The translations under genes and the position numbers were made by a program. A stretch of 64,000 bases of DNA, taken from Spirochaetia bacterium. GTDB taxonomy: Bacteria; Spirochaetota; Spirochaetia; SP-2023. The notes under the pieces are model-generated. The model did not search any database, was not told the DNA's origin, and was given only the letters and a program-made list of their open reading frames with translations. The DNA lies in assembly GCA_965263295.1 (NCBI GenBank), contig OZ253665.1, positions 1,728,001 to 1,792,000 on the forward strand, in the 5' to 3' direction. Positions 4,827-26,286 of this stretch are shown in pieces. How positions within the stretch are numbered: position 1 is the stretch's first letter; each line of letters begins with the position of its first letter.

Positions 4827-5510
4827 TTACAGTTGTTTTCTTTCTTTTTTATACACATTCGCAGATTCGCCCACAGTACGATCTTGAATATCTCGCGCCG
4901 AAGAGGCATAACGCTCAGAGTTCAAGCGACGAATACGATAGACAAGGTAGGCGACAATAGCGATGAAAATCAACAGCAGGACCAGCTGGACAATGCGGAT
5001 GTCTCGCGGCAATTGTTTGCTATAACGTTTACTCAAGTAATAAATAACCGAGATACTAAAAGAGGCCGAAATTGTGTCGAAAAGCAGGAATTTCCAAGCG
5101 GGCAGGCGCGTAATACCGGCAAACAGAGAAATACAATTGCGCACACCAAAAGGAATGAGACGGCCTAATAAAATCATCAGAGCCGAATGACGGGCAAAAT
5201 GAGCGTCTAACAACTCCAGACGATGCGGCGAAATCGCAGCGCGAAATAAACGCATTCCCAGCAAAGGTCGACCAACTTTTCGCCCCATGGTATACGAAAG
5301 CATATCCCCAACGACAGCCCCGGCTATTAATGCTAAATGCATCAGAGCATCGCTTTCACGGCCTACGAGCGGGGGTAGAGCAACAATAAACAGGCCGGAG
5401 GCAATCACTGTCAGGTCTTCTGAAATCGGGATGTTAAAAGCCGCAATTACGAGTGCCAAAAATACTATCAGTGGGGCTATACTTGCGTATTGCTCAAGCA
5501 ATTCCTGCAT
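4827..5510 (-). CDS. DedA-family membrane protein
   Basis: IPISED, GDMLSYTMGR, GRLIPFGVR motifs. Confidence 0.9.
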   Translation of the reverse strand: MQELLEQYASIAPLIVFLALVIAAFNIPISEDLTVIASGLFIVALPPLVGRESDALMHLALIAGAVVGDMLSYTMGRKVGRPLLGMRLFRAAISPHRLELLDAHFARHSALMILLGRLIPFGVRNCISLFAGITRLPAWKFLLFDTISASFSISVIYYLSKRYSKQLPRDIRIVQLVLLLIFIAIVAYLVYRIRRLNSERYASSARDIQDRTVGESANVYKKERKQL

Positions 5511-5723
5511 TGTGTATCACCTATATAAAAAACATTGCAAAAACTTTAGAGTATCCACTATTCATTATATGATTAACAGAGACTTTGCAAAACGCCGCCA
5601 AGATTCTAGTTAATTTCACTAATTAAGAAAATTACCTACCGAAACATTTATTACCAGTTTAATTGTTAATATACTGCATATTTTATACTGATATTTATGG
5701 CAATCAGATTCAGTATCTATCAT

Positions 5724-6266
5724 CTACGGCTTACGGTCGCCAACATATAAAATATAGTGATCAATTTTCCTACGCAGCAAATAAATATGATTCTGCTCGA
5801 AATAGAGCAGTTCAAGTTTTTCATCACTGCCAACAAGCTCTCTACTGGGGCCGATATCCCAACCCCACTGGGCAACTTGCGAACGCAGTTGCGTATCAGA
5901 GAACGATTGCCCAACCAAAGAATCCCAGCGGGATTTGACAAAGTCTTCTCTATCGAGCTTCCAGAACACCCGTAAATGACGGGCCTGCCTTTCTAGCCAA
6001 CGACTTCCCCACTCCAAAGCAGTCAGTTGACCCCGACGCAACTCAAGCCTCAGCCCAATGGTCAATACACCGAAAAGGATGGTAAAGAGCGTCAGTTGGA
6101 CATAATTGCGCCTCAGACGCGATTTGAGTGCCTGCTTGCGCCGCAGGTAGTCTTGCCAAGGTTCTATTTCCTGTAAACCCGCTCGTGTCGTGGCTCTTTC
6201 GCCCTGTTCCCGTTCTCTCTGGTCTTCTGTCTGATTTTGCGATATATATTTGCGTTTCAATAGCAT
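5724..6266 (-). CDS. Hypothetical single-TM protein (start uncertain; ORF extends to 6347)
   Basis: Long ORF with one hydrophobic segment after a basic stretch; no recognised family. Confidence 0.55.
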   Translation of the reverse strand: MLLKRKYISQNQTEDQREREQGERATTRAGLQEIEPWQDYLRRKQALKSRLRRNYVQLTLFTILFGVLTIGLRLELRRGQLTALEWGSRWLERQARHLRVFWKLDREDFVKSRWDSLVGQSFSDTQLRSQVAQWGWDIGPSRELVGSDEKLELLYFEQNHIYLLRRKIDHYILYVGDRKP

Positions 6267-6421
6267 AGAGCAGCTCATGCACATGGGCACATATTTGAAG
6301 CTTAGTGTTAATTCTGTTAAAATTCGCTGCCGATGCCGGCCGGCCATCAGTTAAAATTGTAAGTCTGAAATAGAAGCAATACAAGCTTTGCAGAGCAAAG
6401 AGCATATTTAAAGGAGTATAT

Positions 6422-8116
6422 ATGAGTTCAGTTACACATAAAAGTACCGCGAATATCAATCTGGGTGAAGACGTCATCATCTGTGGCCACCGCAACCCGG
6501 ACACCGATTCGGTTTGCTCGGCTTATGCCCTACAACATTACAAGAAAGCCATCGGAGAGCCCTCACGCCACGTCGCCGTGCGTTGCGGCCATTTGAACCA
6601 CCAGACAAAGTTCATTTTTAGCCACTTGAACGTTGAGCCCCCGCCGTTACTACCCGATATCAACTACCGCGTTCACCATATCATGTCCCCAATATATCTG
6701 TCAAATCCTCTCTCAGCTATCGCCGAGGCCGTTCAAGTAATGAAGGAACAAAGCCTGCGCCTAATTCCTGTCCAAGACGAAGAGGGCCGCTATCAAGGTG
6801 TATACACATTGGACGAAATGACAAATTTCCTGATTGAACGCACCCGCAGCACCTATACGAACTACGAGATTGTCGTAGACAACCTGGTTCAAATACTCAG
6901 AGCCCAGATTGTCCTTCGCGCTGCCCGTCCAGTTATCCACGCAGGCTTCCTCGTGGGCAGTATGGACCGCGACCAAATTGAAGACTATTTCAGCGAGCTT
7001 GACCTTTCCCAGTTTATATTAGTCATTGGACGGCGCAGCAGCATTATCCGCAATGCGATGGAACGTGGTATCGCCGGTATTATCATCACAGGGGACAGCC
7101 TGAACGACGAAGAAATTAAAGCTCTATGCCCCAGTTATCAAGGTTGGATCCTCCGCAGCAGCCTGCATTCCGAAAATGTAATCCGCGCCAGCGCCATGGC
7201 CTCTTCGGTACGCGCCCACCTCAGCCGCGATGCCGAAACCATCAGTCCCGAAGCCCTAATTGAAGAAGCGAAACAGATACTGCAACGTCAATCAGGCCTG
7301 CCCGTAGTCGACGAAGAGGGCAAGCTTCATGGCATGGTGCGCCGTATGGACGTGATTAACGTCAAGAAGCCTCGCTTAATCCTTACGGACCACAACGAGC
7401 CCGCTCAGTCCATCCTGGGCAGCGAGAATGCCGAAATTGTCGAAATTATCGATCATCATCGCCTTTCTCCCAGACCAACTACCAAGCCTATCAATTTTTT
7501 TACAGCTCCAGTAGGCAGTACCTGTACCTTGGTGTCCGAGCTTTTCCTGCGTTCTGGTACGAAAATCCCTATGGATGCGGCTAAAATTTTGCTCTCAGGG
7601 GTAATTAGCGACACCGTAATGTTGCGTTCACCAACCACTACCGACCGCGACAGCAAGGTAGCGGCGCAGCTCGCCGAATATACCGGTCTGGATCCCATTA
7701 CCCTCGGTAATGAAATTTACACCAACGGCTCAATACTCAAGGGCATGCCCATTGAAAAAATAATCAAGAATGACTTTAAAGAATTTGCCCATAACGGCGT
7801 CCAATTTGGCGTCGGTCAGGTTGAAGTCGTCAACATGCGTGAAATCGACGGTCTGGAAAAAGACCTGATCGCCGAACTGGACCGGCTCTCCCTGCCTCAG
7901 GGCGGCCCCTACCACTGGGCCGTATTGCTCGTAACCAATATTCACACGTGCGACAGTATTCTACTGAGTTCAAGCTACGCGCGCGGCCAGGCCAAACTTA
8001 GCTACGAGAAGACCGCCAAGCAGATTTATGACCTGCCCGGCGTCATGTCACGCAAGAAACAGCTGCTGCCAGCGCTCATTGAAGCTCTTACAGACCAGGA
8101 GCTAGGGCGTAATTAA
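6422..8116 (+). CDS. Mn-dependent family II inorganic pyrophosphatase with CBS/DRTGG insert
   Basis: GHRNPDTDS, LTDHNE, IIDHH, VGSTCT, SRKKQ, with a central CBS-DRTGG region. Confidence 0.93.
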   Translation: MSSVTHKSTANINLGEDVIICGHRNPDTDSVCSAYALQHYKKAIGEPSRHVAVRCGHLNHQTKFIFSHLNVEPPPLLPDINYRVHHIMSPIYLSNPLSAIAEAVQVMKEQSLRLIPVQDEEGRYQGVYTLDEMTNFLIERTRSTYTNYEIVVDNLVQILRAQIVLRAARPVIHAGFLVGSMDRDQIEDYFSELDLSQFILVIGRRSSIIRNAMERGIAGIIITGDSLNDEEIKALCPSYQGWILRSSLHSENVIRASAMASSVRAHLSRDAETISPEALIEEAKQILQRQSGLPVVDEEGKLHGMVRRMDVINVKKPRLILTDHNEPAQSILGSENAEIVEIIDHHRLSPRPTTKPINFFTAPVGSTCTLVSELFLRSGTKIPMDAAKILLSGVISDTVMLRSPTTTDRDSKVAAQLAEYTGLDPITLGNEIYTNGSILKGMPIEKIIKNDFKEFAHNGVQFGVGQVEVVNMREIDGLEKDLIAELDRLSLPQGGPYHWAVLLVTNIHTCDSILLSSSYARGQAKLSYEKTAKQIYDLPGVMSRKKQLLPALIEALTDQELGRN

Positions 8117-8238
8117 GGCAGGGGCAAGTTAAGGGCAAGTCTCAGAGGCAAGACGCGGCCAACGTTGTAATCCGTGGCTACGATTCCCGCATTGCGCACA
8201 AACCCTTCCGCTTATCGCCCTCCCGCAGCGACTCCGCC

Positions 8239-9747
8239 ATGCCTCGCCCAACTGTAAACGCCCGCTACACTTGCTCCCCACGGATACTCTTCTGCTCCCT
8301 GCGAATCCTCCTCAGGCTGGGAACTATGTGCAGCTTGCTGCCCTGGCCCGTAGATTCAAGAGCTGTCCCACCGCCAATGTGGGGACAAAATATCCCTCAA
8401 GCTGTCTACGAAAATGGTTTTGCGCGCAAAATTCACGAAGCACCTAGCAAAGAAGGAACCTTAGTCATACAAATGCTGGTGCGCGGATTAAATGAACCAC
8501 AAAGTGCGATTTGGGTCCCCATGCGTTCGTTTCAAAAATTCTACAGCGACCCCTATGCCCGGTTTTCAGGCGGGGCCTGGCTAATCAGCGAACGCAAGGG
8601 CGGCATTTGGGTCTTGTACCAGGAAAACCTTTACCCCCTGCTGGATCTGCCGCCAAATGTAGAGCCGCGCGGCGAAGGCGGATACCTCGACCTCCTCTAC
8701 AACCCCTGGTCAGGGGGCGTTTTCCTGAGCTACGCCCGCCAACTCAGCCAGACGCTCAGCACCGTTTCCGTCCAAGCCTTTACTTTGAAATACAGCTCCA
8801 ATCAATTTCACGCCGTCGGCGTGACCGAAGTATTCCAAGCCCAACCGCCACTGCAGAAACCTGCTGGCTACGGCGGGGCCCTAGCCGCCAACCGGGAGTT
8901 TCTCTACATAGGGCTCGGAACCGGATCGCAACCTCAAGAGGCCCAAAACCTGCAAAGCCATTGGGGCAGCGTCAATAAAATTTCTTTGCATCAAGACCAG
9001 CAAGCTCTTCGCGAGGTGTTTCCCGGCTCCCGACACTACTTGAGTCCGGCTCTGGCCGAACAAGCATCGGCCACCAGCCAGATGGTCAGCATAGGGCACG
9101 CCGAGATATACGATCTGTTCTGGGACAATCACCGACACCAGCTTTGGAGTGTCGAGCAGCTGCGCCTACATAACGGCATTGTACTCGCCGACGAACTCAA
9201 CTTGTTCGGTGAAGGCCACAACTATGGTTGGGGCCTAGAACCAGCACCGCATGAAGTCAATACGGAATCGGGCCAAGCGTCAAGTCTCGGCCGCGATCAG
9301 GCGGCAATACTCAGCTGGACTCGGCCGCCAGGAGTCATCTCAAACCGATATCACCGCAAAATTGACAATAGTGCAAATACCATCGCAAATACTATGGCGT
9401 CGAATGCGAGGCCGGGCATGGGCGGTAGTGCCGGCTGGGGAGCTGTGCTTGTGCTGCCGCCACAGGCTTCGCGCAGCCCCAACCTATTTGCCGCTTGGGC
9501 CGGCGACTTAATTATTGCGGGCTTAGAGGGCCAGAGCCTCTATCGCATGCGGCGCAACCCTGACCCCACGCAGGAGTCAGGATTTCGCCTGGAGTTCCGC
9601 GAGCCAATGCTCAAAGGTCTCCTGGGCCCGATACGCTGGCTGGGTCTGGGACCAGATGGCGCCATTTATTTACTGACATACAGCCACGCGGCTAGCGGCA
9701 GCCGCATGTTGCGTTTAAGCCCTAAAAGTCGTATGTTTCCGCGCTAA
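8239..9747 (+). CDS. PQQ-dependent sugar dehydrogenase-like beta-propeller protein, divergent (start uncertain)
   Basis: GEGGYLDL, DELNL...GHNYGW, WAGDLIIAGL, GPDGAIYLLT. Confidence 0.7.
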   Translation: MPRPTVNARYTCSPRILFCSLRILLRLGTMCSLLPWPVDSRAVPPPMWGQNIPQAVYENGFARKIHEAPSKEGTLVIQMLVRGLNEPQSAIWVPMRSFQKFYSDPYARFSGGAWLISERKGGIWVLYQENLYPLLDLPPNVEPRGEGGYLDLLYNPWSGGVFLSYARQLSQTLSTVSVQAFTLKYSSNQFHAVGVTEVFQAQPPLQKPAGYGGALAANREFLYIGLGTGSQPQEAQNLQSHWGSVNKISLHQDQQALREVFPGSRHYLSPALAEQASATSQMVSIGHAEIYDLFWDNHRHQLWSVEQLRLHNGIVLADELNLFGEGHNYGWGLEPAPHEVNTESGQASSLGRDQAAILSWTRPPGVISNRYHRKIDNSANTIANTMASNARPGMGGSAGWGAVLVLPPQASRSPNLFAAWAGDLIIAGLEGQSLYRMRRNPDPTQESGFRLEFREPMLKGLLGPIRWLGLGPDGAIYLLTYSHAASGSRMLRLSPKSRMFPR

Positions 9748-17035: not shown

Positions 17036-18712
17036 ATGCAAGCAGAGGGGCCGACCCAATGCGGCCAAAACTATTTGGGAATTGAGCTGGGTTCGACACG
17101 CATTAAAGCGGTATTGATTGACTCGACGGGCAAGGTGCTGGCCGCGGGAGGGCACCGTTGGCAAAGTAGCCTGCAGGGCGGCACATGGACCTACCCCCTG
17201 GCGCAAGTTCACGGCGGCCTGCAGGCCGCCTATGCCGAGCTGAAGCAAAACTTCCACCAGAATTATGCTGCGACCCTGCGGCGAATCAGTGTCGTGGGCG
17301 TGAGTGCCATGATGCACGGTTATTTGGCCTTTGACGCCCAGGAGCGCCAACTGGTCGAATTCCGCACTTGGCGCAATACGACGACCAGTCGAGCCGCCGC
17401 GCGGCTCAGTGAGTTGTTTGAGTGCAATATCCCGCAGCGCTGGAGCATCGCCCACTTGTATCAGGCGATATTAAACGGTGAACCCCACGTTGCCGAACTG
17501 GCCCACATAACGACATTGGCCGGTTACATCCACTGGCAGCTGACAGGTGAAAGGAATTTGGGAATTGGCGATGCCTCAGGCATGTTCCCCGTTGGTGGAG
17601 ACGACTGGGACACCAGCATGCTCAAGCAATTTGACGAGTTGCTCCATGGAGTCGATGGGAGCCATGGGGGTCATGGGGGCCATGGGGGCCAATCGACACA
17701 GGGGACCCAATCGACCCAGGGGACACAGGGGACACAAGGGCGCGAGTTCCCGTGGAAGCTCAGGGATCTGCTGCCGCAAGTAAAGCTTGCCGGTCAAGAA
17801 GCCGGCCGGCTCACACAGCGCGGGGCCCTCATGCTCGACCCCGCTGGCGATCTGCAGCCGGGCGCCTTGCTTTGCCCCGCCGAAGGTGACGCCGCGACAG
17901 GAATGGTGGCGACGAATTCGGTGGCCGCGCGCACGGGCAACGTTTCGGCGGGGACCTCAATATTTGCCATGTTGGTACTGGAAAAAAAACTTTCCCAAAT
18001 TCGCCGTGAGGTTGACTTGGTGTCGACACCACAAGGCCTACCGGTCGCCATGGTCCATTGCAACAACGGTTGTAGCGATATCGATGCCTGGATCGGGCTC
18101 TTCGGCGAGGCCGCCGAGCTCATGGGGGCCCGCTTTGACGTCGACAAGCTGTTTCAGGCCATGTATCGCAAGGCGCTGGAAGGCAAACCCGATTGCGCCG
18201 GTTTTTTGCACTATGGCTATGTCGCCGGAGAAGACATGGTCGAGCTTCTTGAGGGGCGGCCACTATTCGTACGGCATGCAGGCAGCCCGCTGAATTTGGC
18301 CGACTTCATGCGCAGCCAAATCTATGCTTCGCTATGTGCCTTACGCATCGGCCTCGACATTCTGATGAAAGACGAGGGTGTGCGGGTAGACGACATTCGC
18401 GGACACGGCGGTTTTTTTAAGACGGCAGTGGTGGGTCAACGGATGATGGCGGCGGCGACAGGAATCCCTGTCACGGTAATCGAAAGCGCGGGCGAAGGCG
18501 GAGCCTGGGGTATGGCATTGTTGGCCTACTTTGCGGCGCAGACGAACAAATCTAGCCTGCCGGAATTCCTGCAGGGCATCTTTGCGGGGCGCATGGGCGT
18601 GCCACTGCCGCCCGATCCTGCAGATGCCGCAGGTTTCGAACAATATTTGGCCCGTTTCTGCCAGGGGCTGGAAATTGAGCGGAGCGCAGTGGGGCAGCCA
18701 GTAGAGAAATAA
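17036..18712 (+). CDS. FGGY-family pentulose kinase (xylulokinase/ribulokinase-like)
   Basis: LGIELGSTRIKAVLID, SAMMHGY, NVSAGTS, GHGGFFKT, GEGGAWG. Confidence 0.9.
   Translation: MQAEGPTQCGQNYLGIELGSTRIKAVLIDSTGKVLAAGGHRWQSSLQGGTWTYPLAQVHGGLQAAYAELKQNFHQNYAATLRRISVVGVSAMMHGYLAFDAQERQLVEFRTWRNTTTSRAAARLSELFECNIPQRWSIAHLYQAILNGEPHVAELAHITTLAGYIHWQLTGERNLGIGDASGMFPVGGDDWDTSMLKQFDELLHGVDGSHGGHGGHGGQSTQGTQSTQGTQGTQGREFPWKLRDLLPQVKLAGQEAGRLTQRGALMLDPAGDLQPGALLCPAEGDAATGMVATNSVAARTGNVSAGTSIFAMLVLEKKLSQIRREVDLVSTPQGLPVAMVHCNNGCSDIDAWIGLFGEAAELMGARFDVDKLFQAMYRKALEGKPDCAGFLHYGYVAGEDMVELLEGRPLFVRHAGSPLNLADFMRSQIYASLCALRIGLDILMKDEGVRVDDIRGHGGFFKTAVVGQRMMAAATGIPVTVIESAGEGGAWGMALLAYFAAQTNKSSLPEFLQGIFAGRMGVPLPPDPADAAGFEQYLARFCQGLEIERSAVGQPVEK
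17644..17742 (+). repeat. In-frame 9-bp-period tandem repeat tract (about 11 degenerate units) in the kinase
   Basis: CCATGGGGG-type then CCAATCGAC/ACAGGGGAC-type units encoding HGVDGSHGGHGGHGGQSTQGTQSTQGTQGTQG. Confidence 0.9.
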
Positions 18713-22821: not shown

Positions 22822-22902
22822 GCGAGAGTGGTGGAATTGGTAGACACGCTAGATTTAGGATCTAGTGCCTATGGTGTAAGGGTTCGAGTCCCTTCTCTCG
22901 CA
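22822..22902 (+). tRNA. tRNA-Leu(UAG)
   Basis: GCGAGAG/CTCTCGC acceptor stem, CTAGA-TTTAGGA-TCTAG anticodon arm, long variable arm. Confidence 0.95.
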
Positions 22903-22936
22903 TTCTGGGAAAAGGGCTTTTCTCTCAGAATGCTTT
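22900..22936 (+). terminator. Probable terminator hairpin after tRNA-Leu
   Basis: GCATTCTG...CAGAATGC stem followed by TTT. Confidence 0.5.
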
Positions 22937-22954
22937 AATCTTCAGAATTATACG

Positions 22955-23254
22955 GAAATAAAATCTGCCCTTATTACGGATGAATACAAGGGATATATAC
23001 TTATGACTGGAAATGGTGTTACTCATGTTGTTATTAACCATCAGGTTTCTTATACAAACGGCAATATACATACAAACACAATAGAGGGGTTCTGGGCATT
23101 AATTAAACGTGCATGGTACGGTTCCCATCATCACTACAATAGGGAGAATACACACTTATATATAGCTGAAACGAGTTATGTATATAATAATAGGAAGAAT
23201 GATAATCTGTTTATGAATACGATTAAGAGAATGATAGGGGGATATTATGTTTAA
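22955..23254 (+). pseudogene. IS1595-family (ISXO2-like) DDE transposase, C-terminal fragment only
   Basis: ITDEYKGY...VINHQVSY..GNIHTNTIEGFWALIKRAWYGSHH...LYIAETSYVYNNR; the N-terminal zinc-ribbon/HTH and first catalytic Asp are absent. Confidence 0.88.
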
Positions 23255-24194
23255 TGAGCTATTTCCTGAAACATATATACAGATAAGAAATGAAAAATGG
23301 AAAGATAATCCTTATATCCCGACATGGGTCAATATTGATAATGTCAAATTAGACCAATTTTACACGAATCCCGATATAGCAACTTACCTATATTCATCTT
23401 TGATGGATATAGTAGAAAAGGACGTAAGAATCAATGTAAATGATTTCCATATTGTAGAGCCCTCTGCTGGAATGTGTGCTTTTTATGATAGGTTTCCTAA
23501 AGATAGAAGGATAGGTATTGATATAGTTCCACATAAGATGGGTATTATTCAGGATGATTTTTTATCATGGAATCCGGGTAAAAAGAAAAAGTATATTACT
23601 GTTGGAAACCCTCCATTTGGTTATAGGGGATGGCTTGCACTCTCATTTCTGAACAAAGCTGCACAATTTTCAGAATATGTAGGATTTATATTGCCTATGT
23701 CTTTTCAGAGTGACGGAAAAGGAAGTCCAAAACATCGAGTAAAAGGAATGAGATTGCTGTACTCCGAGTATTTACCAGATAATACATTCTTATCCGCTAA
23801 TGGAGAGAGCGTCAAAGTAAATGCTCTATGGCAAGTATGGAAGAAGGGCAAAAATGAAAAGCAGGAAAGTAAAACATGTAAAGAATGGATAGACTTATTT
23901 ACTGTAGACATGAGAAAAGAAAGATTATGTGGTCAACGCAGATTAAATGAAGCGGATTGTTTTTTACAAAGGACATTTTATACTGATCCCCCATTACCTG
24001 TTAAAACATTTGATGAAGTGAAATACGTATGTGGATATGGGATAGTCATAAAAAAACAAAAGAGAGAGGTTAAAAGAGCCTTGTACAATATTGATTGGCG
24101 AGATTATAGCAATTTGGCTACACATAATTGTAGACATATTAGTATGTACCATATAGAAAAAGCTATGACGGATATGGGTTATGCAGATGTCTGA
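23247..24194 (+). CDS. Amino (probably N6-adenine) DNA methyltransferase, gamma-type motif order
   Basis: DQFYT (motif X), EPSAG (I), GIDI, DFL, GNPPFG (IV), GFILP. Confidence 0.88.
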   Translation: MFNELFPETYIQIRNEKWKDNPYIPTWVNIDNVKLDQFYTNPDIATYLYSSLMDIVEKDVRINVNDFHIVEPSAGMCAFYDRFPKDRRIGIDIVPHKMGIIQDDFLSWNPGKKKKYITVGNPPFGYRGWLALSFLNKAAQFSEYVGFILPMSFQSDGKGSPKHRVKGMRLLYSEYLPDNTFLSANGESVKVNALWQVWKKGKNEKQESKTCKEWIDLFTVDMRKERLCGQRRLNEADCFLQRTFYTDPPLPVKTFDEVKYVCGYGIVIKKQKREVKRALYNIDWRDYSNLATHNCRHISMYHIEKAMTDMGYADV

Positions 24195-24734
24195 GCAATA
24201 CAGAGATTTATTTATTGAGGCTCTTTCTAAACATAACAATCATTCAAAATGGGATAATGCTTTATTCGGCCAAATAAAGATAATATCAAATACAAAAGTC
24301 GGTTCTGTTGGGCAGGATTTCATTATATTACTTTGTGATAAATTAAGAATTCCATATGAATTGCCAAAAACAAAAACTGGTCAAAATGCAACGCAAAGTC
24401 CCTGGGACATAAAAATAATGGATATTACTTTTGAACTAAAACAGCAACGGAAGATACTAACAACCATTTCCAATTTAACCATATTAGGTATCATAGAAAA
24501 TATCAAGCATTATTGTGTCTTGGGGTTTCCCCTGATTCTTTATGTTTTGGAGCATGGTCAAAAGCAGATGTTACAACAGGCAAAGCAGGAAACATGGTTA
24601 GCATGGAAAAGAACGCAAATGCGTCCTATAAGCTGACAAAAGATAGGGCAGGGTTGTTTCCTATAGAATCATTTAATGATAGAATTAGGGACTTAATAGA
24701 GGAGGTCTTAAACAATAAGCCCTATTCCGTATAA
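24187..24734 (+). pseudogene. PD-(D/E)xK nuclease, putative type II restriction endonuclease, split by a 1-nt frameshift at 24438-24441
   Basis: PWDIKIMDITFELK joins TATEDTNNHFQFNHIRYHRKYQALLCLGVSPD if A4 is read as A5; overlaps the MTase stop; its own stop lies inside IRR. Confidence 0.7.
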
Positions 24735-24807
24735 TTCCGTTAATCTTTATGCCCTCCCCACTCAAAAAAAGGTGACAAAACCCCAATAGTAAAGGATAAT
24801 ATGTTTC

Positions 24808-26286
24808 GTGGTAGAGCAACATACACTGGAAACTCTGGAAGGAGCCAAGGCGCGCATCACCTTTCAGGTGTCTGGCGAAAACACGGCAGGCGAGTATCAA
24901 AAGATTGTCAAAAAGTATGCAAAGAGCATTGATCTGAAGGGTTTTCGCAAGGGAAAGGTACCCGTAGACTTATTGGAACGCAAGTTTGGCAAGGAATTTC
25001 GCGCGGAGGCCTTCCAGCAAGTGCTGGAGCAATGTACCAAAGAAACACTGCCCAATGTAGAACCCAAGGCTCTCGGTTACAGCCAACCTTTTTTATGTGA
25101 TGCAGAGGGCAATGAATTGCCAAGCTCTGAGGCGGCGGTTCTGATTCAGGGCTTCCAACCCGGCCAGGGTTTGGAATTTGCCCTCGCCTATGAAACGAGC
25201 CCGGAAGTACCTTTAGCCACTCTCGATGGTTTGGATTTTGAGGCGCTGACAGTCGCAATCAGCGATGCCGATGTCGACACTGAGTTGCGGCAATTGCGCG
25301 AGCAAAACGCTGTTATGATTGAGCGCAACAGTGGAGTCGGCAGCGATGGCGATCTACTCTCTATGCAGTTTGCCCTTCTAGGAGAGGGTCAGACTGAAGT
25401 TGCCGAAATTGCCGAAGATGCCAAGTTGCGTACCATAGTCCGCTTGGGAGAAGAAGATGCCCACGGCTTTCAAGACAAAGTCAAGGACATGCAGAAAGGT
25501 GAGACCAAAGTACTGAAGGGACACAGTTTCCCCGACGAGACTCGCGTGGAAGGAGAGCTGCGCGGTAAGAGTGGCGATGTATGGCTTGAAGTCAGCCACA
25601 TCCGCACTCGGGAACTGCCTGAACTAGATGACGATTTTGCCCAGGATATCGACGAAAAATACGAGACCGTTGCCGATTTGCAGGCGGCCACGCGTGAAAA
25701 ACTGCAACATGACGCTGAGCACGTGGCAGAAAGTTACGCTTTGTTGCAGATATACCGACATTGGGCATCTAGCCTGAATTTTGCTATCCCTAGTTCAATG
25801 GTAGCTTATCAGACACAGAGCGTCATGGACAAAATTAAACAGCGCATGGGAGGCAAGGAGCAGGATTTGATGATGTACCTGGCCATGCAGCACGGCGGGG
25901 ATGCGCAAAAGGGCCTTCAAGCTCTGGAGAAAGAGACACTGTTGAGTTTGTTTATTGATCTGGTACGCGATAATTTGCTGGAAAGTAAGAATTGGCAGGC
26001 CAGCGACGAAGAAATAGAAAAGGAACTTGAACAAATGGCTCGCCAGCGCGGAGGCACGGTCAGCGAATTAAAAGAACGTTATAAAGATCAATGGGAGCAG
26101 GTGGAGGAATATTTGGGCCAGCAGGCTCTCTTCGCCAGACTGAACAAACAGATGATTGCTGAAGCTTCAGCGGGAACGACAGCTGTTGAAATGACAGTCA
26201 GCGAGCTAAAGAAAAAACTGAGCGAGCTGGAATCAGTTTGTCAGGACTTAGTTTACCAGAAATTTTCGCCCTTTGCCAAGGTGTGA
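24808..26286 (+). CDS. tig: Trigger factor
   Basis: GFRKGKVP ribosome-binding motif, LPELDDDFAQDI. Confidence 0.93.
   Translation: MVEQHTLETLEGAKARITFQVSGENTAGEYQKIVKKYAKSIDLKGFRKGKVPVDLLERKFGKEFRAEAFQQVLEQCTKETLPNVEPKALGYSQPFLCDAEGNELPSSEAAVLIQGFQPGQGLEFALAYETSPEVPLATLDGLDFEALTVAISDADVDTELRQLREQNAVMIERNSGVGSDGDLLSMQFALLGEGQTEVAEIAEDAKLRTIVRLGEEDAHGFQDKVKDMQKGETKVLKGHSFPDETRVEGELRGKSGDVWLEVSHIRTRELPELDDDFAQDIDEKYETVADLQAATREKLQHDAEHVAESYALLQIYRHWASSLNFAIPSSMVAYQTQSVMDKIKQRMGGKEQDLMMYLAMQHGGDAQKGLQALEKETLLSLFIDLVRDNLLESKNWQASDEEIEKELEQMARQRGGTVSELKERYKDQWEQVEEYLGQQALFARLNKQMIAEASAGTTAVEMTVSELKKKLSELESVCQDLVYQKFSPFAKV

Follow-up and report, generated by a model that had tools for sequence, protein, structure and literature searches.

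A probable decayed IS1595 transporter insertion sequence with an intact adenine methyltransferase gene and a frameshifted nuclease gene in a Spirochaetia genome

Introduction

Insertion sequences of the IS1595 family are described as making 8-base target duplications, and the family includes passenger-carrying transporter insertion sequences (tISs) such as MTnSag1/tISSag10 and tISCpe8 (PMC8101967, PMC5704250, PMC3129680). According to the account in PMC5704250, an IS1595 tIS has a DDE transposase, ends of ~25 bp, an 8-bp duplication, AT-rich targets, and passengers behind the transposase, and the passenger of MTnSag1 and tISCpe8 is a lincosamide-resistance gene. Mobile insertion cassettes (MICs) and MITEs, as outlined in PMC3129680, have IS ends around non-transposase genes and no working transposase of their own.

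Restriction-modification (R-M) genes have also been found between inverted repeats. Furuta, Abe and Kobayashi 2010 (PMC2853133) described a type II R-M system with 65-bp ends in Xanthomonas oryzae, and a Neisseria gonorrhoeae unit bounded by 26-bp ends, in which the transposase-like gene has probably been inactivated and an R-M gene is truncated. The same paper, whose main text does not name IS1595, leaves open whether the transposase or the R-M genes drive the movement. It also bears on the fate of such genes: given post-segregational killing, a type II system can safely lose R as long as M remains intact.

Here we analyze an element in a 64,000-nucleotide stretch of a Spirochaetia bacterium genome (the window). 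The element shares with the IS1595 tISs the features listed above, but its passenger is a type II R-M pair, and the window copy is defective, with two thirds of the transposase and the inner left end gone. Like the units of PMC2853133, it has R-M genes between inverted repeats, an 8-bp duplication, and an empty site; the R-M family is a different one.

Results

An AT-rich insertion between tRNA-Leu and tig

A block of 1,797 bp (22943-24739) with 34.0% GC, compared with 49.4% for the genome, lies between the tRNA-Leu gene and tig (Table 1). Its outermost 15 bases, 22943-22957 (CAGAATTATACGGAA) and 24725-24739 (TTCCGTATAATTCCG), match as inverted repeats at 14 of 15 positions, and an exact 8-bp direct repeat, TTAATCTT, flanks the block on both sides. 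The block, its ends, and the repeat had been delimited in a sequence-only reading, and the coordinates and sequences given there are correct. Among 466,539 exact 8-bp direct-repeat pairs in the whole genome (spaced 0.3-6 kb), this is the one pair that encloses an inverted repeat of at least 14/15.

Table 1 Features of the element and its host context.
Feature	Position	Strand	Basis
tRNA-Leu(TAG)	22822..22902	+	ARAGORN; last in His-Arg-Lys-Leu cluster; host context
Terminator-like hairpin of tRNA cluster	22900..22933	+	RNA fold -16 kcal/mol, z -3.2; host context
Left TTAATCTT target-site duplication copy	22935..22942	+	Single copy at X6 empty site
Truncated left inverted repeat	22943..22958	+	Outer 15-16 bp of ~23 bp
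C-terminal third of IS1595-family DDE transposase	22958..23254	+	PF12762, E 5e-14
Type II N6-adenine DNA methyltransferase (predicted), 315 aa, intact	23247..24194	+	PADLOC MTase_II PDLC03280, E 3.5e-65
Type II PD-(D/E)xK restriction endonuclease (predicted), frameshifted	24187..24734	+	Intact 175-aa L016 orthologue
Complete right inverted repeat, ~23 bp	24717..24739	-	CGGAATTATACGGAATAGGGCTT read from tip
Right TTAATCTT target-site duplication copy	24740..24747	+	Exact 8-bp pair; X6 empty site
tig, trigger factor	24808..26286	+	Pfam Trigger_N and Trigger_C; host context

The insertion point is the T-rich tail of a terminator-like hairpin, which is not listed in a consensus terminator scan. 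The left duplication starts 32 bp past tRNA-Leu, and the element itself 40 bp past. The earlier description of an insertion behind tRNA-Leu is right as to position, but the association with the tRNA gene looks incidental. The target is AT-rich, and the 8-bp repeat contains no tRNA sequence; of the hallmarks of tRNA-targeting islands, neither an integrase within the block nor a duplicated tRNA 3' end was found. The targets of sister elements are likewise AT-rich (TTTCAAAA, TTTCATTA, AAAAAAAT, TTTTAATT, and TAAATAAT), so nothing points to tRNA targeting.

Three further observations concern the surroundings. Eleven bases of the tRNA hairpin (22908-22918, GGAAAAGGGCT) are identical to the inner half of the right end of a related element, L033. 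This match lies 35 bp upstream of the insertion point and is probably due to chance. The same tRNA-Leu/tig spacer (loci L012 and L014) holds a long palindrome in the congener G002 and a ~200-bp element with inverted ends in the congener G001, which has a similar end upstream of its tRNA-Leu as well; small mobile elements may commonly land in this spacer. Elsewhere in the window (17036-18712), an open reading frame that appears sugar-kinase-like by eye contains a low-complexity GHG / QSTQGT insert near residues 210-240.

An empty site in a related strain

Seven public runs contain the stretch or part of it, and four of them (X1, X3, X4, and X6) are compared here; X1 is possibly the source of the window. 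If the block is an insertion, relatives without it should have a single TTAATCTT. In X6, which is from another study, one 11.6-kb contig with a depth of 3.5 joins 22934 to 24740 and skips 1,805 bp. Eight letters fit either side of the junction, which is the expected empty site with a single TTAATCTT. In 761 bp of tig, the X6 strain differs at 17 letters and by a 9-base gap, a divergence of ~2%. X1, X3, and X4 (three samples from two studies) carry the insertion at the same site, and the insertion itself is confirmed.

The contigs of X1, X3, and X4 all span the left junction in its deleted form (see below). Among the four samples compared, none has a full-length element at the TTAATCTT site, so the order of insertion and deletion is not observed. 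Both lesions, the deletion and the frameshift, are also present in X4, whose sequence departs from that of the window at 10 bases in 3.3 kb. No change falls in the ~880 bp of the methyltransferase gene that are covered, and five changes fall in dead parts of the element, three of them within 6 bp. In the host DNA, there are five changes in tig, all at third positions, and none upstream.

In three congeners (G001-G003, with genomes 89-94% complete), tRNA-Leu adjoins tig and the cassette is absent. A methyltransferase query finds no match in these genomes, and a single TTAATCTT is not recognizable in their spacers, which are too diverged.

X1, X3, and X4 also have other contigs with a second copy of the methyltransferase gene, ~86% alike (window 23803-24178). 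The loose end of these contigs translates to the C-terminus of protein P0002. The closest relative of the methyltransferase therefore belongs to another organism or replicon that occurs alongside in these samples, which hints at local gene exchange.

A transposase remnant fused to a shortened left end

The first frame of the element matches PF12762 over profile positions 71-153 only, in its first 103 codons (53 bits, cut-off 27), and thus covers the DDE_Tnp_IS1595 domain in part; its match to NF033547 (52 bits) is below the cut-off of 75. Of the catalytic residues, the fragment retains the second D and the E and has lost the first Asp; its zinc ribbon is missing as well. In particular, the zinc ribbon and D140 of the 299-aa relative L015 have no counterpart in it, so that it falls short of an autonomous member, which has a zinc ribbon and all three catalytic residues. 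It is 64-67% identical to the full or frameshifted transposases of G007 and G181. Relative to L033 and L015, ~640-650 bp are missing, with the junction at element base 16. An internally deleted element with the C-terminal part of an IS1595 transposase at its left end is what the sequence-only reading had proposed.

The right end (CGGAATTATACGGAATAGGGCTT) matches the ends of L152 at 20 of 23 positions and closely resembles the 22-bp end of L033. It has an inner GGGCTT box, as do L152, L132, L015, and L033; in the right end of L033 the box reads GGGCTG. The right end CGGAATTAT fits what we take to be the end motifs of both ISNha5 and ISNwi1, and sister elements with the same cargo mostly begin GGGAATTAT. 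The left end has A at position 2, where relatives have G, and lacks the inner GGGCTT box. With 15-16 bp it is shorter than the ~22-26 bp characteristic of both ends in IS1595, and the 8-bp duplication is of the length typical of the family. Complete relatives have ends of ~22-25 bp and 8-bp duplications. Viral loci have duplication-flanked ends in 14 of the 47 scanned (47 of 80, short flanks or apparent duplicates having been skipped by hand), all of 22-31 bp and with G at position 2 (14/14).

Comparison with the 12 closest full-length transposases locates the left junction. Element bases 7-15 match the right end 9/9, and the residues that they encode, Y-T-E, occur in none of the 12 transposases, which identifies the left end as a genuine IS end joined to the transposase interior. 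Transposase similarity begins at element base 16, from which I, K, and S are shared with 10, 8, and 10 of the 12, respectively. The shortened left end is probably non-functional now. A 15-bp end may still work, however, as the literature examined gives no end requirements for IS1595 transposases.

An intact methyltransferase and a frameshifted nuclease

The methyltransferase frame is intact and contains the NPPF motif that had been read from it. The motif order is FYT-EPSAG-NPPF, of the gamma type, with a C-terminal recognition domain; a SAM-binding motif ahead of NPPF is, as we take it from the class definition, the order of gamma-class m6A enzymes. A structural model (pLDDT 90) has its best fold match in M.TaqI (E 2.2e-7). 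Separate M and R genes, NPPF after the SAM-binding motif, and a PD-(D/E)xK nuclease are shared with the M.TaqI-type R-M systems. The present pair, the methyltransferase included, differs from them in that neither Pfam nor NCBIfam has a family for it and the PDB contains no related sequence, and here the R gene is broken. At E<=1e-20, the methyltransferase has 3,825 relatives. A promoter scan is at chance level (8 found, 8.0 expected) and gives no + strand site ahead of the methyltransferase gene inside the element. The gene is intact but now an orphan, with a predicted m6A activity.

The nuclease frame overlaps the end of the methyltransferase gene by 8 bases. It had been read as a PD-(D/E)xK nuclease whose stop lies in the right repeat; both points hold, but a 1-base frameshift in the E-L-K motif (24438-24441, codons 84-85) breaks the frame, which is one base short there relative to L016. 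The position is covered with 0 gaps in the contigs of X1, X3, and X4 (3/3 carrier runs compared). A sequencing error is ruled out, since three samples from two studies share the break. A programmed frameshift is ruled out as well, since the breaks in the six split homologues (of 80) fall elsewhere.

The PADLOC REase_II profile recognizes both the L016 protein (E 2.3e-8) and the second half of the window nuclease (E 1.7e-6). Residues D74, E83, and K85 are the same in all of the 64 intact homologues. A model of the L016 nuclease (pLDDT 90) resembles PD-(D/E)xK nucleases, namely I-Ssp6803I at Z 10.5 (rmsd 2.9 over 120 aligned positions) and NhoI at Z 9.2 (rmsd 4.1 over 126). The 80 genome loci comprise 64 with an intact nuclease, 6 with a split one, 2 with a partial one, 7 with none, and 1 in which the contig ends within it; in the 64 loci the intact nuclease gene lies directly 3' of the methyltransferase gene. 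Such linkage of separate M and R genes is that of a type II R-M system, and the two genes represent a genuine type II R-M family that has no name as yet, with predicted activities. The window copy, with its frameshift, lacks the intact nuclease of a functional R-M system. Relative to L016, the synonymous and non-synonymous codon changes are 59:33 in the nuclease and 90:59 in the methyltransferase. The balance is the same for both genes, indicating that the nuclease break is recent.

Complete and decayed relatives with the same gene pair

We examined 160 loci of methyltransferase relatives, the best 80 of 155 from genomes and the best 80 of 207 from metagenomes. An informative flank is available for 100 of them, in which the IS1595 transposase beside the pair is near-full in 14, partial in 11, and missing in 75; three of the 14 near-full cases are from one genome, and a few of the partial cases may be unrelated neighbours. 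L022, L025, L037, L039, L208, L217, and L245 are complete transposase-methyltransferase-nuclease elements of 2,465-2,684 bp with paired ends and exact 8-bp duplications. Therefore, an R-M cargo between IS1595 ends, as the sequence-only reading had it, recurs in complete sister elements with the same pair (e.g. L022, L025, and L037). The lineage combines passenger and transposase in one IS, as a tIS does, and the window copy is a deleted derivative. L033, in which the duplication is 7/8, has the transposase closest to that of the window (67%), itself frameshifted; in L031, the transposase is reversed. None of the retrieved loci contains a parent element that is closer than L016 or L033.

Three near-identical complete copies (L037-L039; 4944-7627, G404) are present at different sites of one genome, which shows directly that the complete form transposes; L038 has no matching duplication. 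All three have a split nuclease, so that transposition went on although the restriction gene was broken. In the five genomes compared, the full-transposase L037-L039 element is multi-copy, and the deleted relatives L023 and L045 are single-copy.

L016 is the closest relative with context (81% methyltransferase identity). It has ~30 transposase codons left and no paired ends, and its methyltransferase and nuclease are both intact. It is a further stage of the same loss of the vehicle. The L016 pair (5452-8839) lies inside a suf-like operon, with ferredoxin-like and cysteine-desulfurase-like neighbours (labels assigned by eye).

L276 (3367-5444) is a transposase-free cassette of 2,078 bp with IS1595-type ends (17/20) and an exact 8-bp duplication. 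It contains an unknown gene (a 134-codon open frame), the methyltransferase, and the nuclease, and it makes a stronger candidate than the window element for a true mobile insertion cassette. L276, L045, and L023 have ends of ~24 bp on both sides; the duplication is 8/8 in L276, a near-match in a T run in L045, and absent in L023.

The same vehicle is found with another R-M passenger. L015 (4348-8349, G007) is a complete IS1595 element of 4,002 bp with an exact 8-bp duplication, a transposase 64% identical to that of the window, and an N6_Mtase protein (640 aa) and a Methylase_S protein (359 aa) as cargo.

In a methyltransferase tree (quick method, 88 rows), the IS-linked copies are scattered, both among the branches and over several phyla, and the labels full and decayed do not cluster significantly (47/500 shuffles as low). 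A single-protein scan of genome contigs and a close-relative scan of metagenome contigs returned no loci. Plasmids gave 10 weak matches, none covering 80% of the query.

A single copy without a detectable helper

The fragment in the window is the only IS1595 match in the genome (92.6% complete) by PF12762, a custom transposase profile, blastn, tblastn, and an end-motif scan. These searches detect no second copy of the element and no IS1595 transposase that could act as a helper. Three congeners hold other IS1595 sequences, none of which matches the fragment at E<=1e-15. A 22-mer that resembles an end of this subfamily lies outside the window, at position 730029 of G000. Neither a partner (best 14/23) nor a duplication was found in the 8 kb downstream of it, and it is possibly a solo end or a chance match.

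Discussion

The element is most likely a decayed derivative of an IS1595 transporter IS, a known class, and not a new kind of system. We consider it likely, with a probability of about 0.7, that the element arrived as a complete transporter IS and decayed where it had inserted. A complete element of ~2.45 kb (left end, transposase, methyltransferase, nuclease, right end) would have inserted by its own transposase into the AT-rich terminator tail, duplicating 8 bp, after the split from the X6 lineage. A deletion of ~640-650 bp would then have brought the outer 15-16 bp of the left end up against the transposase interior, with loss of the inner end box and the promoter region as well as of the zinc ribbon and the first catalytic Asp. 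The nuclease would have been broken by the loss of one base, with both the deletion and the frameshift preceding the split from X4. The remnant would be an immobilized insertion with one intact orphan m6A methyltransferase gene. The insertion with its 8-bp duplication, the IS1595 origin, the deletion junction, the frameshift, and the complete sister elements are direct observations; that insertion came before deletion is our inference. PMC2853133 leaves the driver open for its units, and the complete sister elements here point to the transposase.

The order would be reversed if the 1,797-bp cassette had moved in its deleted form, in trans, by an IS1595 transposase since lost or encoded on a passing replicon. 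The duplication is perfect and directly adjoins the short left end, the deleted form is present in each of the three carrier samples, and trans-activation of such cassettes is described in general terms in PMC3129680. Deleted or transposase-free versions with paired ends exist as well (L276, L045, and L023), and L276, with its exact duplication, indicates that non-autonomous forms are possible in this family. However, these three keep ~24-bp ends on both sides, whereas the left end in the window is 15-16 bp and changed at position 2. The element has one copy, no helper was found in the genome, and the fragment has no match in the three congeners. Unlike for MICs, movement in the form seen in the window is not evidenced, and the working miniature mobile R-M cassette of the sequence-only reading, with its frameshifted nuclease and damaged left end, is not borne out. 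We consider movement in trans unlikely. If it did occur, a left end of 15-16 bp without GGGCTT or G at position 2 would be a minimal IS1595 end, and such cassettes would spread an uncharacterized type II R-M family over many phyla without a transposase of their own.

The remaining two explanations concern the left end and the nuclease. The left repeat could be native transposase sequence that resembles the right end, used in one-ended transposition. It is in frame with the transposase, the Pfam match begins at the first codons, and the Asn that it encodes matches 9/12 of the closest transposases, with A at position 2 fitting the Asn context. However, the next nine bases match the right end throughout and yet encode residues found in none of these transposases, and a 14/15 match by chance is very unlikely, which makes a cryptic end highly improbable. 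Equally hard to credit is a low level of R-M activity, in which slippage on a short A run would yield some full-length nuclease. By eye, all residues invariant in the 64 intact homologues are still encoded across the two halves, and the break is recent. But the run has only four A's, the other homologues are broken at other positions, and X4 has two further first-position changes in the second half of the nuclease. Thus, decay in place of a complete transporter IS is the reading that we prefer.

A search by title and start of abstract, with most subscription journals outside its scope, found no literature on this R-M family riding on IS1595. The locus is a well-bracketed example of a type II R-M pair that arrives on an IS1595 element and then loses this vehicle. 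The stages are all visible: the empty site, the decayed copy, complete sisters, and a nearly transposase-free relative. The half-deleted left end is a natural and ready test of what IS1595 transposases need of an end. For the unnamed R-M family, the association of 25 of 100 informative loci with IS1595 transposase sequence provides a traced means of spread.
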